64,000 nucleotides of DNA from Acidobacteriota bacterium (GTDB lineage Bacteria > Acidobacteriota > UBA6911 > RPQK01 > JADFOI01): the NCBI GenBank assembly GCA_963663035.1, contig OY760074.1:2426967-2490966 (forward strand). Direction: 5' to 3'. Below the pieces are notes generated by a model, which was not told where the DNA came from, ran no database searches, and was given only the letters and a program-made list of their open reading frames with translations. Each line of letters begins with the position of its first letter. The first letter of the stretch is position 1. The translations under genes were made by a program, and so were the position numbers. Below are positions 21,526 to 62,349 of this stretch, piece by piece.

Positions 21526-22794
21526 TTAGTCGTTCAAAACTACGGTTTCTGAAGGAGACACCATTCGGTAGCGAACTCCCCGCCACTCGATTGTGCGACT
21601 CAACAGGGAACGGATGAATCCCAACAGGGAAAGGAGAGAGGCCAGGGGTCCCCAGAAAGTATAAGCCCAGCGATACTTCCGCAGAACCGAAGCGTGCTCA
21701 GGAAACAACAGGGAGACAGCCCGTACTCGAAGCCAACCCTTTACGCAACCGAGGGAGTAGACTGAAGCAAGCAGCACTGCAAGTGGGAAAAGAAGACGAC
21801 TGGAGGCAAGATTGGTGTTCCAGAGCGCGGCCGACAGGAATGCCATTCCTCCCCAAAGAGTGATGCTGTTGAGGGCCTGCGAAGCAAAAGCCATCTTCCA
21901 CAAGTTGGGATGGTAAACGCGAGTAATGGAAAGTTGTCGGCCGCTCCACTCCAGTAACTCTTCGAAGCTGCAGTCCTCATGGGAAAAACTCAGGCAGCGG
22001 GGTTGGAAGGAAATGGTTCGCGAATGATCATGCATGGCCCGGCTGATAGCGTAGTCGTCACTCAAGGCATTCCTCCAGTAGTCGATGACTCGGCAATCCT
22101 GAAACACTTGACGACGCACGGCCATGGCTCCCCCCCAAGCAAAGGCGCTGTCTCCTTCTTTCAAGAGCGATGCCGTCCCGGCATTCCAAACTGAGCGCAA
22201 AGCAGAAGCAAAGTTCCCTCGCTGGGGGAGATACCAACGAAATCCCGTACTCACACCCACCTGTGGATCTTTGAGTGGGCCGATCAGATAACGCAGCCAG
22301 TGACTGGCCGGTCGAATATCGGAGTCTCCAAGCGCCAACACCTGGTCTTTGTCGCGAAGCTGACCAAGGGCATGCAGCAGGTTATGCACTTTCTGTCCGC
22401 GCTGCTCGGTCTTGCCCGCAAAGAGAATTTCAGAACTCACCCCGGGATATCGCTCTTTCACCTTCTCCAGAATGGGCACACAGGGATCCGCGGAGTCCCC
22501 GGTCACCAGCAGAATCTGCAAGTCAGGGTAGTCCAACTCGAAGTAGGCCTCAAGATTCTGTTCAAGTCCAGCGTCGACCCCTTTGCAGGGAAGAATCAGA
22601 GAGGCCGCTGGAGCAAACTCATGGGGTGGCTTACCGCGAAACTTTTGAAACAGCCGAAGATAGTCGACTCCTGCCTTGAGAGAATAGAGGGCCTCCAGAA
22701 GAGAGAGGATTGCGAAAGCGACGAGAACGGCAGGAATAAGGGTCAAGACTGACATTGGCGACTGGCCCCGGCCATTGCCAGCAACCGGTTCCAC
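21526..22794 (-). CDS. Membrane glycosyltransferase, GT2/GT21-like (ceramide-glucosyltransferase or HpnI-like fold)
   Basis: N-terminal TM segment, a DSD motif (LGDSDIRP), GGAMAVRRQVF, and several C-terminal TM segments. Confidence 0.55.
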   Translation of the reverse strand: MEPVAGNGRGQSPMSVLTLIPAVLVAFAILSLLEALYSLKAGVDYLRLFQKFRGKPPHEFAPAASLILPCKGVDAGLEQNLEAYFELDYPDLQILLVTGDSADPCVPILEKVKERYPGVSSEILFAGKTEQRGQKVHNLLHALGQLRDKDQVLALGDSDIRPASHWLRYLIGPLKDPQVGVSTGFRWYLPQRGNFASALRSVWNAGTASLLKEGDSAFAWGGAMAVRRQVFQDCRVIDYWRNALSDDYAISRAMHDHSRTISFQPRCLSFSHEDCSFEELLEWSGRQLSITRVYHPNLWKMAFASQALNSITLWGGMAFLSAALWNTNLASSRLLFPLAVLLASVYSLGCVKGWLRVRAVSLLFPEHASVLRKYRWAYTFWGPLASLLSLLGFIRSLLSRTIEWRGVRYRMVSPSETVVLND

Positions 22795-23171
22795 TGAGCC
22801 GGAGTCACCGGCATGACTGAGAGGCGGGGAATCCTCACCAATGGAAAATCGGAAAATTCCGAATCCGCCTTGACGTCAGCCAGGGAAACGATTCGAGGGA
22901 GTGTTTCTTTGGCCTTCACGTCCACTACCACGAGTTTTGCATCATTCTTTCCGGGATCGGGATAAGGATCGGAAATGACTTCAGCGATTCCCACCAAGGC
23001 TCGCTCCTTCCCGGTATGGTAGATGAACGCCAGATCGCCTCTTTTTATATTGCGTAGGTGTTTCAGGGCCAGATTATTGGAGACCCCATCCCAGATGGTT
23101 CGCACGTCTCTTTCCAGATCAGTATTGGAGTAGTCGGAAGGCTCTGTTTTGAGTAACCAGTATTGCGGCAT
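22743..23171 (-). CDS. EVE (PUA-like) domain protein
   Basis: MPQYWLLKTEPSDYS...GDLAFIYHTG is typical of the EVE/DUF55 family. Confidence 0.7.
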   Translation of the reverse strand: MPQYWLLKTEPSDYSNTDLERDVRTIWDGVSNNLALKHLRNIKRGDLAFIYHTGKERALVGIAEVISDPYPDPGKNDAKLVVVDVKAKETLPRIVSLADVKADSEFSDFPLVRIPRLSVMPVTPAQWNRLLAMAGASRQCQS

Positions 23172-23180
23172 ACCAAAGCT

Positions 23181-24371
23181 CTAGCCGACTTTTTCAGGAA
23201 TTCGGCTCACTGTCGATGCCATCGTCTTTCCGACAGCCTGCTCCTCAGCTCCATGTTCCTCTAACATCTGATCAAAGAGCGACCTTTGCCTCTGCTCATA
23301 CCTGTATTCTCGTTCCGTGTGGGTGGGTTTCGTTCCAAAGAGGTTCAATTCCTTGGCCAACAGGCCACCCAGGACTCCAATCACCACGATAATGACCGCA
23401 GCATACTCATCTAACTGGACCGTGAAGGCAAAAGCAATGATTCCCAGCAGCACGGTGACGAAATACAAGAACAGCACAGTCTGTTTCTGGCTCAAACCCA
23501 GATCGAGCAAACGGTGGTGCAGATGCTCCCGATCTGCAGTGGCGATACCCTTATTATTGATGTAGCGGCGCGTCAGGGCAACCACTGCATCAAAAATGGG
23601 AATCCCAAAAATGATCACGGGCACGATCAAGGAAGAGAGGGCGAAGCTTTTCTGAAATCCGGTGGTGGAGAGACATCCCAGGGTAAAACCCAGGAACATG
23701 CTTCCCGTATCTCCCAGAAACACCTTGGCCGGAAAACGGTTATAGCGCAGAAAGCCCAGTGTTGCTCCCGCCAGGGCAATGTAAAAATAAGTCACCTCCC
23801 CGGCCTCGATATTGACGGAGATTAAAAAAAGCGTCACCGAAGTAAAAAGGGCAATGCCGCAAGCCAGTCCGTCCAATCCATCAATCAGGTTCATGGCATT
23901 GGTGAGGCCCACAATCCAGAGAACCGAAAGAGGAAAGGCCAACATTCCCAGGTCAAAGTAGTCCCTCGTTCCTGTCACAAGAGGATTGCTCGCCAGCTCA
24001 AACTGCACTCCCATGTAAACTGCAATACTGGCTGCCACAAACTGACAGGCGAGCTTTACAAAGGGGTTAGCATTATGGGTGTCATCCCATAATCCTATGG
24101 CAATAATGACCAAGCTCCCCACCATCATGCCCACCAAACTGGTGCTCAGAACCTGGGGAATGTAGACGTTGACTGCGGCCCCCAGCAAGAGAGAAATGGC
24201 CACGGAAAGAAAGACTGCTGCACCGCCCAGTCGGGGAATGGGAGTTTTGTGCACTTTTCTGTCAGTGGGAATGTCTACGGCACCGATCTTAGCAGCGATC
24301 TTGATGGAGAGCGGCGTCAGGAGATTGACGGAGCCCAGAGCCACCAGAAATAAAAAGAGATAGATAATCAT
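23181..24371 (-). CDS. Undecaprenyl-phosphate N-acetylhexosamine-1-phosphate transferase (WecA/WbpL family, GT4 MraY-like). Initiating transferase.
   Basis: A polytopic membrane protein with NAMNLIDGLDGLA and the DxxD motifs of the MraY/WecA family. Confidence 0.85.
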   Translation of the reverse strand: MIIYLFLFLVALGSVNLLTPLSIKIAAKIGAVDIPTDRKVHKTPIPRLGGAAVFLSVAISLLLGAAVNVYIPQVLSTSLVGMMVGSLVIIAIGLWDDTHNANPFVKLACQFVAASIAVYMGVQFELASNPLVTGTRDYFDLGMLAFPLSVLWIVGLTNAMNLIDGLDGLACGIALFTSVTLFLISVNIEAGEVTYFYIALAGATLGFLRYNRFPAKVFLGDTGSMFLGFTLGCLSTTGFQKSFALSSLIVPVIIFGIPIFDAVVALTRRYINNKGIATADREHLHHRLLDLGLSQKQTVLFLYFVTVLLGIIAFAFTVQLDEYAAVIIVVIGVLGGLLAKELNLFGTKPTHTEREYRYEQRQRSLFDQMLEEHGAEEQAVGKTMASTVSRIPEKVG

Positions 24372-25621
24372 TTTAGGCGACCTGCAAGACTTGACTCCTG
24401 CCTTTCCAGCCCAGGTCTGCCGGCCAGCGTATGGGTGGTCCGAGGAGCAACCGTACTGGTGTTCTCAGGTGGCAGATGCCGTTGATAAACCTGGTGAATC
24501 ATTTCCACCATTGAGTCAGCCGAGTGCTCTTGCCCGATTCGATGGGCGCCTGCCTGGCCCATTTTTTGCCTGAGGTCGGGGTCGGTGATCAGGGTCTCCA
24601 GCCGCTTCACCAAGGCGTTCACATCTCCGGGGGGAATGAGATATCCGCTCACCTGATCTTCCACCAACTCCGTCAGGCCACCCACCCCGCTAGCCACCAC
24701 GGGTTTTCCGGCTGCCATGGCCTCCAGAGCCACTCTTCCCATCCCTTCATAGAAGGAAGGAAGAACTGACACGTCAAGAATGGCTGTAATTTCTGGAACA
24801 TTGGTCCAGAAGCCGGTGAAAATCACGGCTTCTTCGATCCCCAGAGATTTGACTTGTTCCCTTAATTTCTCTTCCAGATTCCCATCTCCCACAATCAGCA
24901 GTTTCACTCGGTGCCCGCTCTTCAGAAGTCGGGCCATCGCATCAATCAGCTGTTCATGGCCCTTCCCCTCCCACAGCTTGGAGACCACGCCAATCACCAC
25001 TTCTTCCGCTTCAATTCCGAACTGAGTTTTAAGCTCGGGGCAAGGGGCTTGATTTCGAAAGCTCTCCACTTCAATTCCGCTGAAGATCTTGACGAACTTC
25101 TCTGGTGGGGCGATCTTCTCTCGCTGCGCCCACTCCACCATGGGCTGAGAGACGGCGATCATCTGGTCACACCAGCCTGCCGCCATTCGTTCCAGGACAA
25201 TAAAGAGATGGCGCACGACCCAGTTCTCTTCATCATGAAAGGCAAAGCCGTGAACGGTGTGGATGACAATTGGAACGTGGTTCTTCCTGGCAGCAAGACG
25301 TCCCAGAAAACCCCCTTTTGAGTTGTGAGTGTGGACCAGATCGAATCTCTCTCGTGCCAACAAACGGTCCAGCTGCCACAGGGCGTGAAGATCCTTGAAA
25401 GGAGACAACTCGCTGACAAAGTTTCGGATGGGGTAAAACTGCAGGCCGGCCTCGCGAACCAAGGTTTCTAATTTCCCACCGGGAGCACTGGCGAGGCCCA
25501 CCTCAGCTCCACAATTCGCTGAGCCCTGCATCGTCCGAAGTGTAGCGATCCCCGAGCCACTGACAACGGGAAGCGTATGAACATGCAGGATCCGCCGGCC
25601 GGCCAGAGAGACATTCTCCAT
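24368..25621 (-). CDS. Glycosyltransferase family 4 (GT-B, glycosyl transferases group 1)
   Basis: The C-terminal E...E motif LPSFYEGMGRVALEAMAAGKPVVASGVGGLTELV. ATGA overlap with the wecA-like gene. Confidence 0.8.
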   Translation of the reverse strand: MENVSLAGRRILHVHTLPVVSGSGIATLRTMQGSANCGAEVGLASAPGGKLETLVREAGLQFYPIRNFVSELSPFKDLHALWQLDRLLARERFDLVHTHNSKGGFLGRLAARKNHVPIVIHTVHGFAFHDEENWVVRHLFIVLERMAAGWCDQMIAVSQPMVEWAQREKIAPPEKFVKIFSGIEVESFRNQAPCPELKTQFGIEAEEVVIGVVSKLWEGKGHEQLIDAMARLLKSGHRVKLLIVGDGNLEEKLREQVKSLGIEEAVIFTGFWTNVPEITAILDVSVLPSFYEGMGRVALEAMAAGKPVVASGVGGLTELVEDQVSGYLIPPGDVNALVKRLETLITDPDLRQKMGQAGAHRIGQEHSADSMVEMIHQVYQRHLPPENTSTVAPRTTHTLAGRPGLERQESSLAGRLK

Positions 25622-25675: not shown

Positions 25676-27187
25676 TCATTGGATATTCACAAAGACGGGA
25701 TTTGACAACACATTGTAGATGTTTCCGCGCCACCGAGCTCTCATCCGAAAATAGTGTCGACCCGATGGGAGTTTCTGCGTGCTCGTGATCTGGATGGGTA
25801 GGTACTGCTCAACCTGCTCCACGACCTCTCCGTTTCGGATCAGTTCAAGATGGAAGGGTCTATCCTCTTCAGGAGGATTATGGAGCCAATCCAAGTGAAT
25901 GTGCACCTGGACAGGGGATTCACCCTCCACTTCACCTCCTTGAAAAGCCTTGGCTCCCTCAAAGGTTTCCACACTGAGTTGGTGCAAACGAAGCTTTTCC
26001 TCCGGCTGTTGGAAGGTGGCGTAACCGCTTCCCTCACGAAGTGCTTCAAGAACGGCCGCTTCCGACTTCTCCGGCATCAAGAGGATGGTTTGGCCTCCGA
26101 CAAGGTCGTACCAGCTTCCCGGGTTACCTTTGAAGTAATGAAAATTGATTCCGGTGGTCAAAAAGGGAGGTGTCCTGCGCCAACCTTCGATATAGGAATT
26201 TAGGGCAAGGTCCCATACTCTACCGGGCAGAGTTGCCGTGATCCGATCGCCGTAGATCCCTTCAATCCCATGGTAACCATCGGTCAGGAGGAGATCTTCC
26301 GCGTGAGGCTGGCTCACCATTTTGGCTCCCCCCATTTGAACATCCGGATAACGAGCTTCTGGATAGCTCCAATAGACGATTCCACCCCGTTTATTCACAT
26401 AATCGATCACACGCTGATAAGGAAGAATGTCCTGCTGACCTGAGTGCGGATCACCCAGCCTCCCGAAAGGATAGTTGTTCCAGGCCAGCAGCAAAGCGAA
26501 TAGCATGATGCTCGTTGCTACTGCCCAAGGACGCCGCTTACGCAGGATCGTGTAGTCGCTGAGATGAATTTTCAGGTAGCTTCCTGACACCAGCAGGAGA
26601 ATCCCGCAAAGAAAGATGCCCGAGGGAACGAGGATCAAAGTCCAATGGGTAGCAGTATTTCCCCAGGTCTCATTTCCGATGACCGGCAGATTTTCAAGTT
26701 GCCGCTCCGTCAGTCCCAGGACAATCAGATGGCGGTCGAAATTGTAGAGTGTCGGCTCAATCCAGGGCTCTCCCTTCCAATAGTAGTAGGGCGTCACCTC
26801 CACGCCCGGGAGAATGACCAGATCAGGAAACTGCTTTTGTGCCTCTCGTACAGCGGCAAAGTAACGCCCGATTCCATAATCCCGAACCCCTGGCCGAACC
26901 ATTTTGTTGATTCCCTCAACGGCGATTCGATCGAACGGCCAGATCCCATAGACTACCGTGGTCAAAAAGGAGTCGGTCAGAACCAGTACGTCAATGTTTC
27001 GTTCCCTTGCAAAACCTGCCAGCTCTGAGACCTCATACTCACCGTTGCTAAAGGTGGAATGGACATGAATGGCGGCCGGGTAGTGCTTCAGCTCTTTTGT
27101 TGCAGCTTCCCCCTGAAAGCAAAACAAGAACAGGAGAAAAAGCAAAAGGAAGGGACTGCACTTAGAAGAAGTGTTCAAGAGAACCAC
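25676..27187 (-). CDS. PHP-domain (metal-dependent phosphoesterase) protein with a signal peptide and an internal TM segment
   Basis: Signal peptide FLLLFLLFLFCFQGEA, then PAAIHVHSTFSNGEY (PHP motif I, HxHxxxSxDG-like). Confidence 0.5.
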   Translation of the reverse strand: MVLLNTSSKCSPFLLLFLLFLFCFQGEAATKELKHYPAAIHVHSTFSNGEYEVSELAGFARERNIDVLVLTDSFLTTVVYGIWPFDRIAVEGINKMVRPGVRDYGIGRYFAAVREAQKQFPDLVILPGVEVTPYYYWKGEPWIEPTLYNFDRHLIVLGLTERQLENLPVIGNETWGNTATHWTLILVPSGIFLCGILLLVSGSYLKIHLSDYTILRKRRPWAVATSIMLFALLLAWNNYPFGRLGDPHSGQQDILPYQRVIDYVNKRGGIVYWSYPEARYPDVQMGGAKMVSQPHAEDLLLTDGYHGIEGIYGDRITATLPGRVWDLALNSYIEGWRRTPPFLTTGINFHYFKGNPGSWYDLVGGQTILLMPEKSEAAVLEALREGSGYATFQQPEEKLRLHQLSVETFEGAKAFQGGEVEGESPVQVHIHLDWLHNPPEEDRPFHLELIRNGEVVEQVEQYLPIQITSTQKLPSGRHYFRMRARWRGNIYNVLSNPVFVNIQ

Positions 27188-27230: not shown

Positions 27231-27689
27231 CTACCTGATCGGATCCCCGTCCAGCCAGTCATAGCCGATTTCCGAATCATCGTGGGGAATACGACCTTCG
27301 TCCTCTGGATTGTAGGTGTGAGAAGTAGCGTAAAGAAGACTTGCGGGCCCGCTGATGCACTTGCAACCGTGAGCGACACCGGGGGGGATCTTGAGAACGC
27401 TTGCCTCGTGGCGATCCCCTAGCATCATTTCCATACTCTGACGGTAGGTAGACGATTCCGGTCGCTTATCGTACAAGACGACCTTCAAAACTCCCGTGCA
27501 GACATACCACCAGTCCGTCTGCTTGTTATGAATATGCCAGGCCTTGATGACTCCCGGGTGCATCAATGAGTGACTCCACTGCCCAAAACCCTCCTCGAAG
27601 AAATCGTCCGTCACCCGAATGATCTCGCGAAAAAACCCACGCTCGTCTCGGTGGGTCTTCAAACTTCTGACAACCACCCCATCAATCAT
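27231..27689 (-). CDS. RmlC-like cupin: dTDP-4-dehydrorhamnose 3,5-epimerase, or a sugar 3,4-ketoisomerase family member
   Basis: A 152-aa protein with DERGFFREI and WHIHNKQTDWWYV, typical of RmlC/FdtA-like cupins. Confidence 0.55.
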   Translation of the reverse strand: MIDGVVVRSLKTHRDERGFFREIIRVTDDFFEEGFGQWSHSLMHPGVIKAWHIHNKQTDWWYVCTGVLKVVLYDKRPESSTYRQSMEMMLGDRHEASVLKIPPGVAHGCKCISGPASLLYATSHTYNPEDEGRIPHDDSEIGYDWLDGDPIR

Positions 27690-28765
27690 AGAGGCGTAGC
27701 CTCGCTTAAGATTTTGACAATGCGTCTGGCGGCATCTCCATCTCCAAAGTCAAGCCGGCGTGCTTGAGGTGGCTTGATCGTTGCAACGGCATGAACGATG
27801 TCGGATTGATCAGCTCCAACCACTACGTTCCAGCCAGACTCTACGGTTTCAGTCCATTCTGTCTCCGGGCGTAGCGTTACACAGGGTACGCCGACAAAAT
27901 AGGCTTCCTTCTGTACACCCCCGGAATCGGTGAGGATCACTCGGGCATTCTGTTCAAGCATGAGCATGTCAAGGTAGCTTACCGGTTTGATGCTCTGGAC
28001 ATTGGGCATTTGAGATAAATCCAGTGCGCCATTCACCCCACTAAGACTGTGTTTCGTCCTGGGATGAATGGGGAAAACAATCGTCTCTTTTATCTCGGCA
28101 AAAGCACTAAGAATGCTGCACAGAGCTTCGGGAGAATCGGTATTGTAGGCACGGTGAACTGTGGCTAACAAGTAGTTTCCTGGCTTTAAATCCAGTTTCT
28201 CAAGTATCTTCGAGCGCTGGCGGGCGACATCGCCAAAGGACAACACCGAGTCGTACATGGTGTCTCCGACAAGGTGTACTCCCCTGGTAATGCCCTCTCT
28301 AGCCAGGTTCTCAATAGCGGTCTTGGTTGGGCAGAAGAACAGGTCAGAGCAGTGATCAGCAATCTGGCGATTACGCTCTTCGGGCATTTCACGATTGAAG
28401 GACCGCAAGCCAGCCTCAACATGGGCCAGGGGAACATTCAGTTTCACTGCAGCCAGGGCAGCCGCCAGAGTCGAATTGGCGTCACCATAAACAATGACCC
28501 AATCCGGCTTTTCCGACTGGAGAACTTCCTCCACACCCATCAGCATGTGAGCCGTTTGGAACCCATGAGTTCCTGATCCTACTCCTAAGTTCAGGTCGGG
28601 TTCAGGAAGTTCCAGTTCTTCAAAGAAAACGCGAGACATCTCCGTATCATAGTGTTGTCCAGTGTGTATCAAGATTTCCTGGTGATGGTTTTTCCTGAGC
28701 TCCTTACTGACGGGAGCAGCCTTGATAAACTGGGGGCGGGCTCCTACGATTGTGACGACTTTCAT
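27686..28765 (-). CDS. UDP-N-acetylglucosamine 2-epimerase (non-hydrolysing, WecB/WbpI family)
   Basis: MKVVTIVGARPQFIKAAPV...HVEAGLRSFN... Confidence 0.85.
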   Translation of the reverse strand: MKVVTIVGARPQFIKAAPVSKELRKNHHQEILIHTGQHYDTEMSRVFFEELELPEPDLNLGVGSGTHGFQTAHMLMGVEEVLQSEKPDWVIVYGDANSTLAAALAAVKLNVPLAHVEAGLRSFNREMPEERNRQIADHCSDLFFCPTKTAIENLAREGITRGVHLVGDTMYDSVLSFGDVARQRSKILEKLDLKPGNYLLATVHRAYNTDSPEALCSILSAFAEIKETIVFPIHPRTKHSLSGVNGALDLSQMPNVQSIKPVSYLDMLMLEQNARVILTDSGGVQKEAYFVGVPCVTLRPETEWTETVESGWNVVVGADQSDIVHAVATIKPPQARRLDFGDGDAARRIVKILSEATPL

Positions 28766-29880
28766 GGTTGAGTCTCAGAACCAACCATGGCGCCTTCTAA
28801 TGCAGCCACAACCTCCTGCACCTGTTGGTCGGACATCTCCGGGTAGACTGGGATGGCCAGGGTTTCGCGACTCATTTGTTCTGTAACCGCGAGATCACCC
28901 TCCTTTAATCCGAGAAACTGGCAGGGCTTGGTCAAGTGCAGGGGTTGGGGATAGTAGATAGCAGAGCCAATCCCTTTCTCTCTCAGAATTTGGATAACCT
29001 CGTCACGCTGCCTCAGTCGCACCACAAAAAGATGAAAAACGTGCTTGACCGAGCTGGCTTCATAAGGCACCCCTATGCCGAGATCAGAAAGTTGTTCCTT
29101 ATATTGGGCCGCCACCTCACGACGACGTTGGTTCCAGACATCAAGGTAGTTCAACTTTACCCTGAGGATTGCCGCCTGTAGCTCATCCAGACGACTGTTG
29201 TGCCCTGTCGTCTCGGGGAAGTACTTTTCCCGCCACCCGTGGGTTCGCAGCATTCGCGCCCGCTCGTAAGTTTCAGCGTCGTTGGTGACCACCATTCCCC
29301 CATCGCCATAGGCTCCCAGGTTCTTGCTTGGAAAGAAACTCAAACATCCTGCATCGCCCAGGCTTCCGGTTTTTCTGCCATCGTACTCGGCTCCCATGGC
29401 CTGGGCATTGTCCTCAATGACTTTTAAGCCGTGAGTCCCAGCCAATTCCAATAGGGGGCCCATAGAGGCTGGATGCCCATACATATGGACTGGAATGACG
29501 GCCTTGGTACTGGGTGTCAGCTGCTCTGTGACCTGCTGCACATCAAGACAGTAGGTGTCGGGTTCGATATCGACGAATACGGGTCTCGCACCCACCTGCA
29601 GAACCGCTTCAGCCGTAGCAAAGAAGGTATAGCTGGGCACAATCACCTCATCGCCAGCACCGATGCCTAGACTCTCCAAGGCGATGATCAGGGCGTCAGT
29701 GCCCGATGCCACCCCGATAGCATGTTTGACCCCCAGGTAGGCCGCCACTTCCTGTTCCAACTCTTGAACATTGGGACCAAGCACAAAGTGTCCCGACTCC
29801 AAGACCTGTTGAATCGCACCGTCAATTTCCGACTGAATTGCTCGATACTGAGCTTTTAAGTCAACCAGCGGTATTGTCAT
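28762..29880 (-). CDS. DegT/DnrJ/EryC1 family PLP-dependent sugar aminotransferase
   Basis: MTIPLVDLKAQY...HFVLGPNVQELEQEVAAYLGVKHAIGVASGTDAL. Start taken at the ATG at 29880. Confidence 0.85.
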   Translation of the reverse strand: MTIPLVDLKAQYRAIQSEIDGAIQQVLESGHFVLGPNVQELEQEVAAYLGVKHAIGVASGTDALIIALESLGIGAGDEVIVPSYTFFATAEAVLQVGARPVFVDIEPDTYCLDVQQVTEQLTPSTKAVIPVHMYGHPASMGPLLELAGTHGLKVIEDNAQAMGAEYDGRKTGSLGDAGCLSFFPSKNLGAYGDGGMVVTNDAETYERARMLRTHGWREKYFPETTGHNSRLDELQAAILRVKLNYLDVWNQRRREVAAQYKEQLSDLGIGVPYEASSVKHVFHLFVVRLRQRDEVIQILREKGIGSAIYYPQPLHLTKPCQFLGLKEGDLAVTEQMSRETLAIPVYPEMSDQQVQEVVAALEGAMVGSETQP

Positions 29881-54803: not shown

Positions 54804-54819
54804 CACTTGCGGCTCTCCC

Positions 54820-55016: not shown

Positions 55017-55111
55017 AAACCCTGCTTCTATGTTACAAAATAAGAGGGGCCGACCGTGCAGCCCTCAACAGGAAACGTTACCGTATTGATGGGACGAGGT
55101 ACTGTGGAAGA

Positions 55112-56215
55112 ATGAGAATTCTAGTCATTTGTGATGTTCTGTCTCCGCAGACGGTGGGAGGGGCGGGAAGGTTCGCTCGAGAAGTCACCACGGCTTTCGG
55201 AGAACGGGGTAACGCGGTGGAATTTCTCACTCGACAAGTTTCTGCGAATCGTTCGAGAAACGATGCCAACGATATCAAAACAACCTATTACCCATTTGTG
55301 GGAAAGGCCTTTCCCACTCGTTTTCGAAAGATCTTCAACCAGACCATAAGAGACTTTAAACCTGACCTTGTGCATGTTCATCAACCCCTGCCAGCATTCC
55401 TATTGATTCCATCTTCTTTCTCCCGACCGATCGTCTACACCTTTCACTCCTCCTGGGCGGAGGAGTTTAAGATCAAGTCTTCTCGCTGGCCGCGAGTCTT
55501 CAGAAAGATAGTGAGTCCTTTGCTGGCGGAAGTGGAGAAACGCGCACTCCACCGTGCAACTGCAATAACGGTGCTGAGCGAGTTCTCACAGCGCAAACTG
55601 AAGCGACTTTATAACCGGGAAGGGGTCATAATCCCGGGCGGAGTCAACTCCGAGCGATTTCAACCGATCGAGAAAGTGCAACCCAACCAGACTCTTCGCC
55701 TGGTTACCCTTCGCAACCTGGTCCCACGGATGGGATTACCTCAACTGATCCGCGCCATGAAACTCTTGCCTTCCCACATCGAACTAACGATCGGGGGACA
55801 GGGTCCACTGCGGAATGAGCTAATGGGGCTCATCGGGTCCCTGGGTCTGAGCAAACGAGTGCAATTGGCTGGACACGTGCCGGATGATGATCTTTCTCAT
55901 TTCTATTCGTCGGCCAACTGGTTTGTTCTGCCCACTGTGGCACTGGAAGGATTCGGTCTGGTTATCTTGGAAAGCCTTTCCTGTGGCACTCCGGTGTTGG
56001 GAACAAGGATCGGGGCGATTCCGGAGCTGTTGGAAAAATTCGATCCACAGTGGATCATCAAAGAACCCACTCCGGAGGCCATCGCTGCCACAATACTATC
56101 TGTCAGCGAAAACTCCCCTCCCTCGCCCACCCAGTTGCATGATCGGGTCAGCGCGGAATTCGACTGGAGAAACATTGCCGCGCGCTACCTCGACCTGTTC
56201 GCGAGTCTCATCTAG
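55112..56215 (+). CDS. GT4 glycosyltransferase
   Basis: MRILVICDVLSPQTVGGAGRFAREV...LEGFGLVILESLSCGTPVLGTRIGAIPELL. Confidence 0.8.
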   Translation: MRILVICDVLSPQTVGGAGRFAREVTTAFGERGNAVEFLTRQVSANRSRNDANDIKTTYYPFVGKAFPTRFRKIFNQTIRDFKPDLVHVHQPLPAFLLIPSSFSRPIVYTFHSSWAEEFKIKSSRWPRVFRKIVSPLLAEVEKRALHRATAITVLSEFSQRKLKRLYNREGVIIPGGVNSERFQPIEKVQPNQTLRLVTLRNLVPRMGLPQLIRAMKLLPSHIELTIGGQGPLRNELMGLIGSLGLSKRVQLAGHVPDDDLSHFYSSANWFVLPTVALEGFGLVILESLSCGTPVLGTRIGAIPELLEKFDPQWIIKEPTPEAIAATILSVSENSPPSPTQLHDRVSAEFDWRNIAARYLDLFASLI

Positions 56216-56300
56216 GGAAATGTGGGGACAAAGGGGAAATGTGGGGACAAAGGGGAAATGTGGGGACAAAGGGGAAATGGGGACAAAGGGGAAATGTGGG
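56216..56300. repeat. 19-bp direct tandem repeat GGAAATGTGGGGACAAAGG: three perfect copies, one 17-bp copy and one partial copy
   Basis: Read directly. There are no interspersed spacers, so this is not a CRISPR array. Confidence 0.85.
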
Positions 56301-56364
56301 GACAGACTACCCGTTCACCTTATTTCGGAAATGAGGTGAACGGGTAGTCTGTCCCCACATTTCC
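56290..56364. terminator. Perfect 30-bp stem hairpin with a 15-nt loop; bidirectional terminator candidate between convergent genes
   Basis: ggaaatgtggggacagactacccgttcacc / ggtgaacgggtagtctgtccccacatttcc. Confidence 0.6.
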
Positions 56365-56382
56365 CTCCACCAGCTTCCCCCT

Positions 56383-56613
56383 CTACCTTCTGTCCGCGTC
56401 CTGAGGCTCGTAGAATTCAGGCTGGTGATTGTAAAGATAGGTCCCAAACCACATGAGAAAAAAGGCAATCACGACAATCACCAATAAGACAATCACCTTC
56501 GGCCAGACCCCTCCGCGTCGTGGAGAACCTAGCCTAAAAAGGCCGGAGATCTTTCCCCTGTCTCTCCTTCTCCTGCCTCTACCTCTCCTGTCTCCCTTTC
56601 TCCTCTCTGTCAT
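56383..56613 (-). CDS. Doubtful small ORF (76 aa): an Arg-rich N-terminus plus one TM helix
   Basis: ATGA overlap with the stop of asnB-2. The N-terminus RRGRGRRRRD is encoded by the CT-rich heptamer repeat family, so the ORF may be spurious. Confidence 0.25.
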   Translation of the reverse strand: MTERRKGDRRGRGRRRRDRGKISGLFRLGSPRRGGVWPKVIVLLVIVVIAFFLMWFGTYLYNHQPEFYEPQDADRR

Positions 56614-58496
56614 CCTGTGAGCCTCTTCTCCATCTTTTCATACCACAGCTGAAAGACAAGAAGACCCCACAACTGGTTGGTCTTGCGAACTTTTCCGCTG
56701 AGGTGCTCCTGAAACAGAAAGTTGACCTGTTGTGAATCGAAGAAACCCTGACGATCCAGTCTCTGGGGTGCAAAGTAATGCTCGAACATGGATCGCAGCT
56801 CCTGTTTCATCCAGGTGCCGATGGGAATCATAAAACCCTGCTTCTTCCGGCTGAGGATCTTCGGAGGCAAGTCGTTTTTCAATATTTTTTTCAACAGCTT
56901 CTTCAGGGTAAAGGAGCCTACCTTGCGGTGCCATGGGTGACGAAGCAAGTCCTCTACTAAAAGATGGTCGCAAAAAGGTACTCGAATCTCCAAGGAGTGA
57001 GTCATTCCCATCTGGTCAGCCATATAGAGCAGATCATTCACCAGGTAGGACACCAGATCCACATAAAAGACCTGGTCCACAGGGTTCCACTCCCGAACCG
57101 GCTGAAGTAACTCGTTGAAGTAAGCCTTATCTCGATCCAGTGACGTCAACTTGCTCAGGAACTCCCTGGTGTACAGTGCTCGTCGGTCCTCTGGTGAATT
57201 GAAGCTGACCCACCTGCGATAGCGGTCAAGAGGCTGATCCTCAGGATGTGACAGGAAGCGGCGTGCCCATCCTCCTATGTTTCTACTGGATTCCCCCTCG
57301 GGGATGGCCCTGGACATCCGCGACAAGAGCTTCCGCAAGGCAAGAGGCAACTCCCGGTAACGGGTGTCCCACAAAACGCCCAGGTATCGAGGATAGCCGC
57401 CAAATAACTCGTCGCCGCCGATGCCAGACAATGCCACTTTGACTTGGCCGGCCGTTTGCTGGCTGACGAGATAAGTGGGAATGGCTGAAGAATCGCCAAA
57501 GGGCTCATCCATTGCCTGAACAACATCCAAGATCGTCTGCTGGATGTCGGGCTGGACAACGAACTCGCAGTGCTCAGTCTTGTAATAGTCAGCAACCAGA
57601 CGGCAATACTCCAGTTCATCAAAAGAGGAAAATTGCTCTCCGTAGCCAATAGAAAAGGTCTTCACCGGCTCAGAGGAGCTTTCACTGACCAAGGCAACAA
57701 TGGCACTGGAGTCTATGCCTCCACTCAAAAACACCCCCAGAGGCACGTCACTCATCAGCCGGATCGCCATGGACTCGCGAAGACGTGAATCAATCTGTTT
57801 CTCAAAATCCTCTGCACTTTCCTCTGATAACCGATCAACTGGAGGCTCCCAGTACTGAACAAGTTCATACTCACCTTTTTCATATTCCAGGTAAGTACCA
57901 GGTGGAAGTTTGTAGATGTTTTTGTAGATGGTCCAGGGACAGGGGATGTAGAGAAAACTCTGGTAGAGATCCAGAGCTTCAGGACTCAACTCCAGGGAAA
58001 GTCGCTCCTCTTGAAGCACTGCCTTCAGCTCTGAAGAAAAAATCACTCTTGTTCCCAGAGGAGTGAAATAAAGTGGTTTGACTCCCAAATGATCCCGCGC
58101 CAAAAAGCCTTTCTGCTCTTTTTGATTCCAGATGGCGAAGGCAAAGTCGCCCCTCAAAAATTTGGGGGTCTCCGGCCCCTTTTCTTCAAAGAGATGCAGA
58201 ATAACTTCCGTATCCGTATGCGTCGAAAAGCGATGACCTCGCCCTTCAAGTCCCTCTCTCAGTGTCTGGTAATTATAGATCTCCCCATTGAAGACAATCC
58301 AAAGATCACCCGATTCATTGCTGATCGGCTGATGACCCGTGATCAGGTCAATGATGGTGAGCCGGCGCATACCCAGTGTTGCACCCGGGTTGCTGTAGAC
58401 TCCGTGGTCGTCGGGCCCCCGATGAGTGAGGCACTCATTCATGCGCTCCACCAGAGCAGGGTTTTGTTCCCCAAAGACACCATTAATTCCACACAT
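56610..58496 (-). CDS. Asparagine synthase (glutamine-hydrolysing) family amidotransferase, second copy
   Basis: MCGINGVFG and the SGGIDSS PP-loop. Confidence 0.9.
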   Translation of the reverse strand: MCGINGVFGEQNPALVERMNECLTHRGPDDHGVYSNPGATLGMRRLTIIDLITGHQPISNESGDLWIVFNGEIYNYQTLREGLEGRGHRFSTHTDTEVILHLFEEKGPETPKFLRGDFAFAIWNQKEQKGFLARDHLGVKPLYFTPLGTRVIFSSELKAVLQEERLSLELSPEALDLYQSFLYIPCPWTIYKNIYKLPPGTYLEYEKGEYELVQYWEPPVDRLSEESAEDFEKQIDSRLRESMAIRLMSDVPLGVFLSGGIDSSAIVALVSESSSEPVKTFSIGYGEQFSSFDELEYCRLVADYYKTEHCEFVVQPDIQQTILDVVQAMDEPFGDSSAIPTYLVSQQTAGQVKVALSGIGGDELFGGYPRYLGVLWDTRYRELPLALRKLLSRMSRAIPEGESSRNIGGWARRFLSHPEDQPLDRYRRWVSFNSPEDRRALYTREFLSKLTSLDRDKAYFNELLQPVREWNPVDQVFYVDLVSYLVNDLLYMADQMGMTHSLEIRVPFCDHLLVEDLLRHPWHRKVGSFTLKKLLKKILKNDLPPKILSRKKQGFMIPIGTWMKQELRSMFEHYFAPQRLDRQGFFDSQQVNFLFQEHLSGKVRKTNQLWGLLVFQLWYEKMEKRLTG

Positions 58497-58512: not shown

Positions 58513-59936
58513 TCAGACAGACTGGTCCAGGGGCTCAGTTTCCTCTTCGGAGAGCTCTTCAGCAGCTACAAAGCGCAAGCTAAAGACAAGGCCGGCTACC
58601 AGCCAGAAGGGCTGCATAATGCGGACTATAATGAAGGTGTTGGACCCGATGGCATGGAAGAGGAGGCACACCAGAGCTCCTAGAAAACCGACCGCCAGAC
58701 CTCTGGAGAAGGGTTCATCAGAAAAATAGCGGAAACGATCCATCCCCATTTGAAAAAGTCTAAAACAGAGGAACAACAGAGCAAACAGACCCAATAGCCC
58801 GCTTTCGAGCAACGTTCTAAAGTACTGGGCATCGATAAACTGCCACCCCGTCACCCCATAACCGAGAAGAGGTTCCTCGTAGAAATCCTGCAGAGCCGCT
58901 TGGAAACTTTGCAGTCGAGCAGAGGTTGAGGTATCCAATCGCTGACCAAAAACGAGGACCTGGCCGGCCATGGGCTCCTGGGCTCCTGGGTCCAGGTATA
59001 GGTGACCCGGTCGCGAATAACTTGGGGGAACACATTGGGGAAAAGCAGAAGACAAAAGGTCAGACCCAGCAGACTGTAGCTGACCAGGCGCTGCTTACTC
59101 AAGAGCAGCACCACAGCCAGCCCTGGAATAAAGCCGAGATAGGAAGCTCGTGAAAGCGTGAACAAGAAAGGCACAAAGAGATAAAAAGCAATGGCGAAGT
59201 AACCGATCCGGCTCCTGTATTCCGGTAGATTCAGTGACAGAGCAATACAAATGAGGATCAACAAGGCCAGATAGCCTCCAAAGGTATTGGGTTCTGGGCT
59301 GTCACCTTCAAAGGGAGCTGTTATCCGACCTCCGCCGGGGACCTGAGCGAGACCGATAGCGCCTACAATAAGAGCTGTCACGATGACCGCCACCCAATAT
59401 CGTCGCAGCTGCTTTTGGTCTTCGATGTTGTTGATGACCAGAAAAAAGAGCACAAAGTACTGGATGTACTTCAGCACAAAAAGGGACCCGGCCATGAGTT
59501 GGACCCGGCCGGCCGCTATCCCTATCAGTGTAGAGAGAAAACACGCGAAAGCGTAAAGAAGCATGGCACCATTGAGCGGGGTTTTCTTGAAAATTCCCAA
59601 TTCTTTGTGCAGGGCACTTTTCACCATCCAGGAAACTGCAATGATCACCAGTAGAAAATCATCGAAACGAAAGGTGACACCCCTTCCCAAGGTCCCTCCT
59701 GTAGTGGCGGACTGACCGACACCGAACTCGGGAGAGAGCAGCATGGAGCAGATCAGTAGATAGATGGCGATCTTCGCTCTGAAAAAGACAAGGACGGTGA
59801 CCGCGATCCCTACACCCACCAGAAGGGCCACACTCATCTCCAGTCGGGAGATAAGGAGGGCGACTACAAACAGAACCCCTCCCATGAGAAGCATCAGGAA
59901 AAGCTCAAAGGTGTGCTCGCCAGGGATCCGTGCCAT
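58513..59936 (-). pseudogene. Wzy / O-antigen ligase family polymerase, frameshifted by an 8-bp tandem duplication
   Basis: The N-terminal ORF 58851..59936 carries the TLSRASYLGF motif. The C-terminal ORF 58513..59055 (GYGVTGWQFIDAQYF) is in another frame. Deleting one copy of GGCTCCTG (58973-58988) gives a continuous ...TYTWTQEPMAGQVLVFGQRLD... product. Confidence 0.7.
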
Positions 59937-59943
59937 CTGGTGA

Positions 59944-62349
59944 CTACTCCTCGTCCGTGAGCTTCATCACGTCTTCCATTTCCTCATCGCCAGAGGAGGG
60001 GTGGGAGGGCTTCTTGGGGGATGCTTTAAAACCTCTGAAGATCTTTCGAAGACTCTGACGGCCGAGAAAGCTCGAAAATCGCTCTTTCAAGCCGCCCACG
60101 AGTCCCAAATAGGATTCGGGGGCAAGAACCTCTTCGTACTTATATTTATAGCCATAGTATGGGTAATCGCGGGTATAGTAGATTTCCGCCTCGATGTCGT
60201 TCATCAAAAGACCCACCACGTTTCCACCAACAGATTGCAGCCGACTTTTGGTTCGGTTGACGACTTCGCGTCCAACTCGGCCAATTTGATAGGTAATCAG
60301 TGTCGCCTCGATGCCGGGGGTCAACTGAGAGGCTTCGGCCACCGGAAGCACAGGTGCAATATCCACAATGATGATGTCATAAAGATCACGCATTTCTGAA
60401 AGGATTCCGCTCATCTTGTCCAGGTTCAGGAGTTCAGCGGGGCTATCGACCCTTCTCCCGGCAGTGAGTAGAAAAAGATACTCAAGTCCCGGGTTCAAGT
60501 GGGCATTCTTGAGTCCAAATTTCCCTAAGATCAAATCATCGATTGATTTGGTGGCACTTTCCCACTCAGCCACTCCCAGAAGAACATCCGATAATCCAGG
60601 GGTCTTAGACAATCCAAAGACTCTATGGACCTGGGGACGCCGCAGGTCGGCATCTATCAAGAGTGTCTTCCAACCGGCCTGGCCAAAGATGACCGCTAAG
60701 TTACAGGCGGTGTTCGTCTTACCCTCCTGCAAGACAGAGGACGTGACCAGGACGGTCTTCCAGTCATTTTTCTTTAACATGACCTCGAGCTGGGCACGCA
60801 TTGAACGGAAAGCCTCGGAGACGGGCTCTTGAGGGGCAAAATGAGTACAGAGAGTGGCCATTCGGTCTATTTCCCCGGAGGTGACATCGCTCCCCATCTC
60901 TCCCACCAGCACATTCCCTCTCACCAGGTCTGCATCCAGATGGGGGATCACCCCCAAAACAGGAAGCTCAAGATATCCCTCAACATCATCTATAGTCCCA
61001 ATCGAGGTATCCAGGGACTCCAGCAGGACAGAAAAAATGCCGCCTAAAATCAGTCCGATCAGTACGCCCGCCAGAGATTTCAATAATCTCGAGGGCTGAG
61101 CCAAGGGGATAGCCAAGCTGGCCTGCTCGACAATAGTGACCTCCTTGATTTCACTGGCCTTCTGAATCTCCGCGTCCTGCAACCGCCTCTGGAAAAGATT
61201 GAGGCCATCGGTCTGGAGTACGACGCGCCGTTCCAAAGCTCCAAGTTGGCGGGTGATCTCAGGGACGGTTTCCAGTAGATCCCAACGGATCATTAAAGTG
61301 CGGCGATTTTCAATCAACTCATCCTGAACGGCCTGGTAGCCTTGAAGCAAACTGGAGATGATTTCCCGACCGCTTTCTTCCAGGTCTTCTGTCTCGAGGA
61401 TTTTCTCCTGGACCTCCCTCGATTCCGCAGTGCTGTAGCGCAACAGTCGACGCAATTCGGTTTTGAGCCGGTTGATCTCAACAATCAGCTGCAAAACTTG
61501 CTCTTCCAGTCGATAAAGCATCTGATCTTCTGCTTCGCCCAGTACAGGAGAGAAGGACCAGTACTCCTCGACGCTGGGAATCAGCTCCAACTGTCGCATC
61601 CCCTTTTCCAGATTGGCCATCGTTCTTCCAAGACTCTCGATCCGCTGTTGGATGTCTCCACCTGCGGCGGCATCCAGAGCTAAGACCGTCCGATAGTCTC
61701 GCTTGAACTCCTCGAGTCCTTTTTCCGCCTGGCCCAGCTCTTCCTCAGACTCTTGGATTCGGGCTTGGATGAACAGCACAGCCTCGCGAACCTCTCTATT
61801 TCTCTCTGAGATGTTGTAATTGACAAATTCCTCAGCCGTATAGTTGGCGATATCAACTGCCAGTTCCTGTGAGGAGCCAAAAGCCAGGATGCCCACAGCT
61901 TCGCTGTCTCCCTTTTTTTCAGCCTCGATTTCGATGTCGCTAACCAACCTCACCAGGTTCGGATCATCCCGGACCTTTTGCTCGAGAGCCTCGTAGTCCA
62001 CCTCCTCCTCATCTACATCACTACCTAAAGCATTCATCTCGCTGTATTGATCGTACTTCTGAGCAAGACGCAGCGCCACACGTGCTTTAATCTTCTGACT
62101 TGTGATGATCTCTGACTGGGTGGCGATGTTGTCACCTTGATACCAATATAAGGCCTCGACCAGCAGTGCCTGCATATTGGCCGCCACACGAGTGATTTTC
62201 ACCAACGATTCAGCTTCGAATCGGGGAGGCGGGCTTTCAGTGAAGAACCAGGTCAAAGCCCCGACCAGGCTGGGTGCCAGCAGGAGGATCCACCTCCGGC
62301 GACGTGCGACACGAAAGATGTCTCGAAGGTTGATTTCAAACTCTGCCAT
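59944..62349 (-). CDS. wzc: Polysaccharide co-polymerase fused to a BY-family tyrosine autokinase (Wzc-like)
   Basis: An N-terminal TM helix, a periplasmic coiled-coil region and a second TM helix, then a P-loop (SSVLQEGKTNTACNLA) and a C-terminal Tyr cluster (YYTRDYPYYGYKYKYEE). Confidence 0.85.
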   Translation of the reverse strand: MAEFEINLRDIFRVARRRRWILLLAPSLVGALTWFFTESPPPRFEAESLVKITRVAANMQALLVEALYWYQGDNIATQSEIITSQKIKARVALRLAQKYDQYSEMNALGSDVDEEEVDYEALEQKVRDDPNLVRLVSDIEIEAEKKGDSEAVGILAFGSSQELAVDIANYTAEEFVNYNISERNREVREAVLFIQARIQESEEELGQAEKGLEEFKRDYRTVLALDAAAGGDIQQRIESLGRTMANLEKGMRQLELIPSVEEYWSFSPVLGEAEDQMLYRLEEQVLQLIVEINRLKTELRRLLRYSTAESREVQEKILETEDLEESGREIISSLLQGYQAVQDELIENRRTLMIRWDLLETVPEITRQLGALERRVVLQTDGLNLFQRRLQDAEIQKASEIKEVTIVEQASLAIPLAQPSRLLKSLAGVLIGLILGGIFSVLLESLDTSIGTIDDVEGYLELPVLGVIPHLDADLVRGNVLVGEMGSDVTSGEIDRMATLCTHFAPQEPVSEAFRSMRAQLEVMLKKNDWKTVLVTSSVLQEGKTNTACNLAVIFGQAGWKTLLIDADLRRPQVHRVFGLSKTPGLSDVLLGVAEWESATKSIDDLILGKFGLKNAHLNPGLEYLFLLTAGRRVDSPAELLNLDKMSGILSEMRDLYDIIIVDIAPVLPVAEASQLTPGIEATLITYQIGRVGREVVNRTKSRLQSVGGNVVGLLMNDIEAEIYYTRDYPYYGYKYKYEEVLAPESYLGLVGGLKERFSSFLGRQSLRKIFRGFKASPKKPSHPSSGDEEMEDVMKLTDEE

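Follow-up and report, generated by a model that had tools for sequence, protein, structure and literature searches.

A mosaic Wzx/Wzy-type polysaccharide locus, probably inactivated, in an Acidobacteriota genome

Mosaic loci of the Wzx/Wzy plus Wza/Wzc type are a standard route to surface-glycan diversity in bacteria. In capsule, exopolysaccharide (EPS) and O-antigen systems the usual architecture is a conserved export module joined to a mosaic variable region, and decay by insertion sequence (IS) insertion or by frameshift is familiar. A locus of this kind was found at positions 21526–62349 of a 64,000-nt stretch of contig OY760074.1 (assembly GCA_963663035.1) from an Acidobacteriota bacterium; the whole stretch is termed the window. 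The locus is 41 kb long, has about 35 genes and, as judged from its sequence, is very probably a chromosomal, Wzx/Wzy-dependent and Wza/Wzc-exported heteropolysaccharide (capsule/EPS-type) locus that is mosaic in composition and inactivated in this genome.

The closest described system is that of the group-1 capsules and colanic acid (E. coli cps/wca). The likeness consists of a polyprenyl-phosphate initiator, cytoplasmic glycosyltransferases (GT), Wzx, a Wzy_C protein, a Wzc BY-kinase with a Tyr tail and, as seen in relatives, a Wza (Poly_export/SLBB) gene beside wzc. The initiator here is of the WecA/MraY type, whereas that of group-1 capsules is of the WbaP/WcaJ type; in addition a low-molecular-weight phosphatase of the Wzb type did not turn up, tailoring genes are far more numerous, and wza and wzy are inactivated. 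The locus thus belongs to the Wzx/Wzy-dependent, Wza/Wzc-exported class, with two of the defining genes not intact here.

The described counterpart for the precursor genes is the WbpA-B-E-D-I/wlbA-D pathway to UDP-ManNAc3NAcA, in which WbpB/E/D/I make diacetamido uronic acids; the gene order dehydrogenase-acetyltransferase-aminotransferase-epimerase is that of Bordetella wlbA-D. The window resembles it in having a dehydrogenase, an N-acetyltransferase, a C3-aminotransferase and a 2-epimerase in one operon, but lacks the WbpA-type 6-dehydrogenase and has an extra cupin gene. A third comparison is with aminoglycoside pathways, which use GenK-type B12 C-methyltransferases. A radical S-adenosylmethionine (SAM) enzyme of the locus resembles the aminoglycoside radical SAM enzyme AprD4 in its N-terminal Rossmann/B12-type domain, its CX3CX2C core and its carbohydrate-biosynthesis context; the context is a surface-polysaccharide locus here and an antibiotic cluster there.

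Genes were called from an open reading frame (ORF) listing, followed by Pfam and NCBIfam profile scans against curated cutoffs and, for selected proteins, PDB sequence searches. Glycan-related domains are found on about 30 of 35 consecutive ORFs, far beyond chance. An earlier note on this DNA, made from the letters alone, had read the region as a Wzx/Wzy/Wzc polysaccharide locus, and the domain inventory supports this: nearly every gene listed was re-found, the counts (seven GT4, two GT2, two GT-C, three class I plus one FkbM methyltransferase, two AsnB) are exact, and the WecA-type initiator, the B12-binding radical SAM enzyme, Wzx and Wzc all have above-cutoff domains. Of the two UDP-aminosugar cassettes named in that note, the first is present as a wlbA-D-like operon; the second is partial, without an aminotransferase and with an in-frame TGA in its dehydrogenase. 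The Wzy-like gene is also present, split into two ORFs by an 8-bp duplication.

The gene order at the left end, on the minus strand, is GT2, EVE, WecA-type transferase, GT4, PHP-like, cupin, 2-epimerase, DegT, hexapeptide acetyltransferase and GFO dehydrogenase. Diverging from this first GFO gene are a second GFO, a second epimerase and a second acetyltransferase on the plus strand. The middle has a GT-C gene (minus) and then a plus-strand run of methyltransferase, FkbM, an unannotated ORF, methyltransferase, Wzx, four GT4, methyltransferase, GT4, AsnB, GT-C and GT2. At the right end are the radical SAM gene (minus), a GT4 (plus), and minus-strand AsnB, Wzy_C-like and Wzc genes. The locus runs on rightward past 62349, where two wza remnants (62363–62527 and 63795–63879) flank an IS3 element. 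Its GC content (~50%–56%) is not distinct from that of the flanks, which carry housekeeping genes: type II secretion/pilus genes, tmRNA, CoaE, UvrA, an ECF sigma factor, PolA and an M24 peptidase.

Export module, lesions and relatives

The genes that bear on export and on inactivation are as follows (bit scores with curated cutoffs where given). L084, L085 and L086 are comparison loci on metagenome contigs that were reached through protein searches; ENA contigs that carry relatives of the locus are ctg355628 and ctg278137 of ERZ25766727 and ctg471314 of ERZ25074053.

59944–62349, minus: Wzc, a PCP-2a co-polymerase with BY-type tyrosine autokinase (Wzz 28.3 vs cutoff 25.5; AAA_31 32.8; TIGR01007 133.7 vs 108.05)
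58513–59936, minus: Wzy-like (Wzy_C) polymerase gene, frameshifted, present as two overlapping ORFs
62363–62527, minus: wza 3′ remnant, the last 55 codons, aligning to L085 5687–5851, the end of a 329-aa Poly_export/SLBB gene
62528–63794, plus: IS3-family element (orfA 62594–62872, orfB 62725–63765; transpos_IS3 247 vs cutoff 160; rve/HTH_21)
63795–63879, minus: wza 5′ remnant, signal-peptide codons 1–28, translation MVRDSLARTLSFFILISCLWPSVCVEAQ
31595–32683, plus: pseudogene of a second GFO dehydrogenase, in-frame TGA at 32288–32290

Wzc has the Walker A motif GKT and a C-terminal Tyr cluster, YYTRDYPYYGYKYKY (pattern YYxxxYxYYxYxYxY). In the adjoining wzy gene, 8 bp (CCCAGGAG) are repeated exactly in tandem at 58971–58990. 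The repeat is found by TRF, and the additional copy is missing from L085 and L086, where the orthologues are intact (471 and 473 aa, respectively). With the 8-bp copy removed, the gene encodes a 471-aa protein that is colinear with the L085 orthologue and scores 39.5 for Wzy_C (cutoff 31.7), compared with 20.1 for the fragment.

The wza gene is interrupted by the IS3 element, which has 33-nt terminal inverted repeats at 62534–62566 and 63757–63789. Window positions 63795–63990 align at 92% to L085 4946–4751, where wza starts at 4862, and the region upstream of the 5′ remnant reaches the window's right edge. Missing from the window is a stretch of wza of about 740 bp (L085 4947–5686). Intact Wza in relatives is 329–340 aa long, with PF02563. 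In both L085 (3564–4748) and L086 (7483–8724) a gene for an HD_5/HD-GYP-like protein, possibly a cyclic di-GMP phosphodiesterase, is situated immediately upstream of wza. The locus, with a possible cyclic di-GMP input, thus reaches beyond the right end of the window.

The third lesion is in the second GFO gene, whose translation reads ...LHLS*LDPKK, with TGA at 32288–32290. Trp occupies this position in GFO1, its paralogue, and in the 359-aa orthologue of L084; read from these alignments, the change is a TGG to TGA nonsense mutation, a single G to A. Selenocysteine insertion or read-through at this TGA was rejected, as orthologue and paralogue have Trp in a conserved S-W-L-D/H-P motif.

The three lesions probably represent real inactivation. 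With the exporter destroyed and the polymerase frameshifted, the product is probably neither polymerised nor exported, and the system is probably non-functional in this genome.

Related loci are 87%–96% identical and apparently from Acidobacteriota. Wzc shares 96% identity with a protein from an ENA metagenome contig, and 93% with one at NCBI that bears the label 'MAG: Acidobacteria bacterium'; matches at 58%–63% identity are also labelled 'Acidobacteria bacterium'. A Geobacter/Desulfuromonadales origin, to which the model names 'GSU2086 family' and 'Geo_Pelo' had pointed, was rejected in view of the 93% Wzc match. L084 has 87%–92% nt identity over window positions 27459–46825 and retains the precursor operon, a GT-C gene, the first two class I methyltransferase genes, the deacetylase-fold gene, Wzx and GT4 genes. 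It is without the second epimerase (WecB2) and FkbM, and has two extra genes, for a DUF7033 protein and a 377-aa protein. The order in L085 is HD-GYP-like, Wza (329 aa), Wzc, Wzy (471 aa), GT4 and radical SAM, without the second AsnB (AsnB2); beyond wza are a GDP-mannose 4,6-dehydratase gene, gmd (TIGR01472 439.8 vs cutoff 415), and an SDR gene. L086, on a 3.9-Mb contig, has a Wzc with 76% identity and shares the HD-GYP-like, Wza (340 aa), Wzc, Wzy and AsnB genes; its AsnB is followed by unrelated genes for GT9, GT4, another Wzx, a sulfotransferase and a methyltransferase.

This synteny comparison shows common modules and differing tailoring genes. From these alignments, the locus is a conserved wza-wzc-wzy-asnB export module plus a mosaic variable region whose content changes even from one close relative to the next. 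The enzyme combination that the earlier note called undescribed is not a conserved type: relatives of about 90% nucleotide identity lack WecB2, FkbM or AsnB2, or carry other genes. Only modules are shared, and the combination is one strain's assortment. As a system, this ordinary strain-variable surface-polysaccharide locus adds little to what is known; part of its value is as a clean natural example of a polysaccharide locus in the middle of inactivation in an uncultured member of the Acidobacteriota, with intact alleles in close relatives.

Several points weigh against the reading of one inactivated, export-type locus. The comparison loci are low-coverage long-read contigs (their names carry 1x, 5x) with frameshifts of their own, e.g. 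in the Wzx and deacetylase-fold genes of L084. Wzy_C also covers WaaL-type ligases, and the designation of polymerase comes from context. No UDP-sugar 6-dehydrogenase of the WbpA/Ugd/WecC type was found in the 64-kb window (a scan of every ORF of at least 380 aa gave no UDPG_MGDP_dh match). The lesions might stem from errors or from minority variants, yet read errors do not typically take the form of an 8-bp tandem duplication, a transition or an IS bounded by inverted repeats. If they were assembly or sequencing artefacts or minority alleles, the locus would be intact and active and the full methylated, amidated, N-acetylated polymer would be made. All other genes do match orthologue lengths in relatives, and rare variants can become fixed in metagenome-derived assemblies. 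The lesions, however, are three independent ones of three different kinds, none homopolymer-like: an IS3 element with proper terminal inverted repeats, orfA and orfB, an 8-bp unit that is an exact tandem copy, and a G to A nonsense change in a Trp codon that is conserved in orthologue and paralogue. An intact, active locus is therefore improbable.

The locus comprises at least seven transcription units in alternating orientation, which would accommodate more than one pathway. The 41 kb might be two or more juxtaposed glycan pathways, e.g. a Wza/Wzc EPS system and an O-antigen system, or lipid or protein glycosylation with GT-C enzymes. In favour are the pair of GT-C enzymes, the presence of two partial precursor cassettes, and the sharing with L086 of only wza-wzc-wzy-asnB, followed there by an unrelated set with its own Wzx. 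The best named matches of the terminal GT2 and the radical SAM enzyme are the hopanoid proteins HpnI and HpnJ, but their scores are far below cutoff (126 vs 310 and 134 vs 578), and a hopanoid reading of the two genes was rejected on these scores. The locus has a single initiating transferase, a single Wzx and a single Wzy-like gene, its genes are contiguous with short or overlapping junctions, and a 45-nt element precedes two of the plus-strand units. A composite of pathways thus seems rather unlikely. An exosortase-associated (XrtA/PEP-CTERM) EPS system is very unlikely, although PEP-CTERM models are the best NCBIfam matches for both AsnB proteins (TIGR03108), several GT4 (stp2/stp3), Wzc (pepcterm_TyrKin/ChnLen) and the Wza of relatives (pepcterm_export): all of these are below the curated cutoff (666 and 552 vs 817; 213 vs 409; 106 vs 231; 116 vs 180), and neither the window nor the L085 and L086 loci yielded an exosortase gene.

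Proposed pathway and its enzymes

The pathway proposed for the single Wzx/Wzy-type locus follows from family membership unless stated otherwise. The wlbA-D-like operon and the cupin would supply a UDP-2,3-diacetamido-2,3-dideoxy-hexose and its 2-epimer. The WecA-type enzyme would start the repeat unit on polyprenyl phosphate, and up to seven GT4 and two GT2 would lengthen it. Decoration would fall to four methyltransferases (O-methylation), two AsnB proteins, the B12-domain radical SAM enzyme and two proteins assigned by fold, one deacetylase-like (CE4 fold) and one phosphoesterase-like (PHP fold). Wzx would flip the repeat unit across the membrane, the two GT-C enzymes would add periplasmic side groups from polyprenyl-P-sugars, Wzy would polymerise, and Wzc with Wza would set chain length and export the polymer. 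The methylation and N-acetylation of the product that were predicted earlier are reasonable expectations from the gene families.

The precursor genes, apart from the second GFO dehydrogenase listed above, are:

27231–27689, minus: small cupin, an RmlC/FdtA-like sugar epimerase or ketoisomerase (dTDP_sugar_isom 85.1 bits)
27686–28765, minus: UDP-HexNAc 2-epimerase, WecB/WbpI/WlbD-like (Epimerase_2 363.5 bits; TIGR00236 wecB 341.9 vs cutoff 210)
28762–29892, minus: DegT sugar C3-aminotransferase, WbpE/WlbC-like (DegT_DnrJ_EryC1 424 bits)
29861–30469, minus: hexapeptide N-acetyltransferase, WlbB/WbpD-like (PDB 3mqg, WlbB, E-value = 2.6e-62, 213 bits, residues 7–183, approximately full length)
30466–31476, minus: GFO/IDH/MocA protein, putative sugar 3-dehydrogenase, WbpB/WlbA/GnnA-like, termed GFO1 (GFO_IDH_MocA 85.4 bits)
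32680–33738, plus: second UDP-HexNAc 2-epimerase, WecB2 (Epimerase_2 273 bits; wecB 245 vs cutoff 210)
33781–34353, plus: second hexapeptide acetyltransferase (Hexapep 67.7 bits)

The suggested likeness of the GFO-hexapeptide-DegT-epimerase operon to the WbpB/D/E/I (WlbA-D) route is borne out by the matches to WlbB (E-value = 2.6e-62) and WbpE (E-value = 3e-85). The WbpE match of the DegT protein is a family-level similarity; DesV and QdtB, likewise C3-aminotransferases, score higher, and the top PDB match is 7b0d, annotated as a glutamine--scyllo-inositol transaminase. The best NCBIfam match of GFO1 is UDP-GlcNAc 3-dehydrogenase, NF040723 (154.8 bits, below the cutoff of 450). Its PDB matches are modest: 7bvj, presumably the UDP-GlcNAc 3-dehydrogenase GnnA, at E-value = 4e-21, and WlbA (3q2k) at 6e-18, which is no closer than other GFO enzymes. 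The WlbB-like acetyltransferase, the grouping of the DegT protein with C3-aminotransferases and the GFO enzyme together support a UDP-2,3-diacetamido-2,3-dideoxy-hexose and its 2-epimer as products. WecB2 is 36% identical to the first epimerase and its absence from L084 is seen as an alignment gap; the second acetyltransferase is 44% identical to the first. Orthologues of the cupin adjoin radical SAM homologues in two other loci (L001 and L003).

With no 6-dehydrogenase found in the window, the locus itself does not provide a uronic acid to be amidated, and the amidated uronic acid that the earlier note had foreseen finds no support from it. The enzyme could lie elsewhere in the genome. Without a WbpA-type step in the window, the precursor product may be a neutral diacetamido sugar.

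The two putative amidotransferases are:

48757–50679, plus: AsnB amidotransferase 1, N-terminal MCG (Asn_synthase 352.8 bits; TIGR01536 535 vs cutoff 267; TIGR03108 666, below the cutoff of 817)
56610–58496, minus: AsnB amidotransferase 2 (Asn_synthase 317 bits; TIGR01536 458, above cutoff; TIGR03108 551.7, below the cutoff of 816.9)

The two are 41% identical, and both have the full-length glutamine-dependent architecture with an N-terminal Cys. AsnB2 is part of the wza-wzc-wzy-asnB module, with an orthologue in L086. In full length, N-terminal Cys and presence in a polysaccharide locus they resemble the AsnB-like WbpS and WbpG of O-antigen loci and the TIGR03108 amidotransferases, although they score below the TIGR03108 cutoff. 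WbpG is a proposed acetamidino-forming enzyme. The AsnB pair could amidate a uronic acid made elsewhere, or could form acetamidino groups instead.

The glycosyltransferases, methyltransferases and flippase are listed below, with predicted transmembrane segments (TM).

21526–22794, minus: GT2, GT21/HpnI-like, 2 predicted TM (Glyco_tranf_2_3 65.1 bits, Glyco_transf_21 54 bits; best NCBIfam HpnI, 126 vs cutoff 310)
23181–24371, minus: WecA/MraY-type polyprenyl-phosphate HexNAc-1-P transferase, ~10 TM (Glycos_transf_4 133.9 vs cutoff 27; best NCBIfam ECA_wecA 123, below cutoff)
24368–25621, minus: GT4 a (Glycos_transf_1 152.3 bits)
34463–36316, minus: GT-C 1, PMT_2/ArnT-like, ~12 TM (PMT_2 55 bits)
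36407–37165, plus: class I SAM methyltransferase 1 (Methyltransf_23/25/11, 55–60 bits)
37243–38385, plus: FkbM methyltransferase (Methyltransf_21 71.7 bits; TIGR01444 112.6 vs cutoff 37.7)
39643–40359, plus: class I SAM methyltransferase 2 (Methyltransf_11 65.5 bits)
40356–41693, plus: Wzx (MOP-family) flippase, multi-pass (Polysacc_synt_3 51.9 vs cutoff 23; Polysacc_synt 47.5 vs 28.2)
41721–42884 and 42891–44045, plus: GT4 b and c (Glycos_transf_1 121 and 119 bits)
44126–45298 and 45335–46513, plus: GT4 d and e (Glycos_transf_1 80 and 79 bits)
46486–47415, plus: class I SAM methyltransferase 3 (Methyltransf_25 82.2 bits)
47503–48693, plus: GT4 f (Glycos_transf_1 101.7 bits)
50686–52203, plus: GT-C 2, PMT_2-like, at least 9 TM (PMT_2 28.5 vs cutoff 26.1)
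52216–53190, plus: GT2 b, with weak family matches (Glycos_transf_2 28 vs cutoff 23.3)
55112–56215, plus: GT4 g, divergent from the radical SAM gene (Glycos_transf_1 103 bits)

Two pairs of GT4 genes are recent tandem duplicates: b and c, with 71% protein identity (direct repeats D2–D4), and d and e, with 72% (direct repeat D1). The FkbM protein, whose gene is missing from L084, also gives a weak RfbT-like match (25.4 bits, below cutoff).

Radical SAM enzyme and two other candidate tailoring families

Three proteins of the locus belong to families without a characterised member that recur in glycan loci of uncultured phyla; they are concrete candidates for new sugar-tailoring chemistry.

53193–54806, minus: B12-binding radical SAM enzyme (Radical_SAM 88.6 vs cutoff 29.5; B12-binding 59.6 vs 32.1)
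38382–39653, plus: 423-aa protein with a predicted CE4-like polysaccharide-deacetylase fold (fold similarity only), absent from the earlier inventory
25676–27187, minus: membrane-anchored PHP-fold metal phosphoesterase-like protein with a C-terminal Ig-like domain (fold-level match)

The radical SAM protein has an N-terminal B12-binding domain and the CX3CX2C motif in the form CIFTCTYC. All 34 of its NCBIfam matches are below cutoff, those to named B12 radical SAM subfamilies (HpnJ, BchE, PhpK, HpnR and others) included, the best being HpnJ (133.6 vs 577.6). An exact look-up of the protein gave no record. In PDB sequence searches the closest solved protein is AprD4 (E-value = 5e-17), followed by OxsB (1e-9); the AprD4 similarity is confined to the radical SAM core, residues 190–396. 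AprD4 is a sugar 3′-dehydratase that has a related N-terminal domain yet does not bind cobalamin (PMC12931638). Because of this, the use of cobalamin by the radical SAM enzyme of the window is uncertain.

The homologues with at least 55% identity that could be placed (L001, L002, L003 and L085) are all in glycan loci, where their neighbours are GT4, DegT, cupin, Wzy_C, methyltransferase or heptose-pathway genes. The adjacency of GT4 and radical SAM genes is kept in L085. A profile scan of species-representative genomes gave at least 557 relatives across many phyla, including Planctomycetota, Omnitrophota, Desulfobacterales, Chloroflexota and DPANN archaea, with an identity of 42% or less among the 80 loci kept. 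A GT4 gene was recognisable within 10 kb in 23 of these 80 distant loci by blastp with the window proteins, an insensitive and uncontrolled count; the census shows that GT4 genes are often nearby, short of a formal enrichment. B12-domain radical SAM genes in glycan loci are widespread in metagenomes. No described radical SAM enzyme in a Wzx/Wzy, O-antigen or capsule locus was found in the searchable literature.

Radical SAM paralogues often stand in tandem, two to four per glycan-type locus, with three in L002 (3377–13344) and up to four in L035 and L049. Arrays of such paralogues are also present in L003 (10001–20268) and in many of the loci L004–L083. The arrays suggest iterative or multi-site modification.

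As a best guess of low confidence, the radical SAM enzyme might C-methylate a sugar residue or its activated precursor, or dehydrate it by a radical route. The candidate reactions may be C-methylation of an unactivated carbon, or dehydration/deoxygenation, with the adjacent GT4 as the conserved partner. A wider proposal is tentative: the enzyme would perform radical chemistry on a surface-polysaccharide sugar or on its nucleotide- or lipid-linked precursor, and the Pfam-less deacetylase-fold protein and the membrane PHP-fold protein would be two further widely distributed tailoring families. If true, the radical reaction class is one not described for capsules, EPS or O-antigens.

The deacetylase-fold protein has no Pfam or NCBIfam match, including Polysacc_deac_1, even at E-value = 0.1, and its sequence identity to CE4 structures is 9%–13%. 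Compared with the CE4 deacetylases (PgdA, ArnD, WbmS, PelA domain) it is larger (423 aa) and has an extra C-terminal beta domain. Homologues recur in glycan loci of many uncultured phyla and all are uncharacterised. A reading of the 475-aa ORF at 38226 as a second polymerase was rejected; it shows no TM, translation probably begins at the ATG at 38382, and the fold is that of a deacetylase.

The PHP-like protein scores 21.1 bits for Pfam PHP, below the gathering score of 26.4. A PHP fold with His/Asp/Glu metal ligands is present, and the top folds are TM0559 and 3e38-type PHP proteins. The possibility that it is a CpsB-type phosphotyrosine phosphatase partner of Wzc was also considered and is not supported, there being no PDB sequence match, and the top folds are not CpsB.

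Repeat elements, a small open reading frame and flanking genes

The non-coding elements and small genes of the locus are:

31513–31557, plus: 45-nt repeated element with TATAAT, containing CCTATAATATAAAA; second copy at 36338–36382 (direct repeat D6, 87% identity)
54819–55018, no strand assigned: ~200-bp element resembling a miniature inverted-repeat transposable element (MITE), with terminal inverted repeats of 25 nt (TAGCCGGGATTATG...) and a core that is GC-rich and palindromic, between the radical SAM and GT4 g genes
56215–56365, no strand assigned: GGGAAATGTGGGGACAAAG, a 19-nt unit in 4.8 tandem copies that leads straight into a hairpin (38-nt arms, 97% complementarity)
56383–56613, minus: 76-aa ORF with an Arg-rich N-terminus and one TM, no family match
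22743–23171, minus: EVE-domain protein (PF01878 EVE 137 bits), between the GT2 and WecA-type genes in the left operon, probably not a glycan enzyme

Both copies of the 45-nt element lie between divergent genes, each ahead of a plus-strand unit, and the 29-nt core gives 2 matches where 0 are expected. It is also found in L084 (8023–8051), upstream of the orthologue of methyltransferase 1. A sigma-70 and terminator scan of positions 31300–37300 gave no more hits than shuffled sequences and did not call the element. From its sequence and placement, the element may be a shared promoter or operator, a hint of shared regulation.

Copies of the MITE-like element are present in L084 (7761–7974, 83%) and L085 (1149–1337, 81%). 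Since the positions in the window and in the two relatives differ and are non-syntenic, the element appears to be mobile within the lineage.

The 19-nt array lies between the convergent GT4 g gene and the small ORF/AsnB2 pair. A terminator, a REP-like element or a protein-binding array are candidates for the array and hairpin. The array region (56215–56388) is not covered by the alignment of L085 with the window. The ATG of the 76-aa ORF overlaps the stop codon of AsnB2 (ATGA), and the region of this ORF is kept in L085 (9694–9929) though AsnB2 is missing there.

A PIN-domain (toxin-like) gene at 21056–21454 (plus) is located directly at the left border of the locus and has no obvious role in glycan synthesis. 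An Rfam scan found no riboswitch or other RNA inside the locus; its one hit is the upstream tmRNA gene, at 7531–7891 on the minus strand (187.9 bits), for which ARAGORN gives the tag peptide ANEQLPLAA. A 170-aa ORF that overlaps it (7455–7967, plus) is spurious. A GSU2086-family protein (412 bits, above cutoff) is encoded at 9517–10467 (minus) and adjoins uvrA. Positions 13464–15995 (minus) encode a PDZ-domain protein, a 178-aa ORF without a Pfam match (14860–15396) and an ECF sigma factor (15393–15995) upstream of polA.

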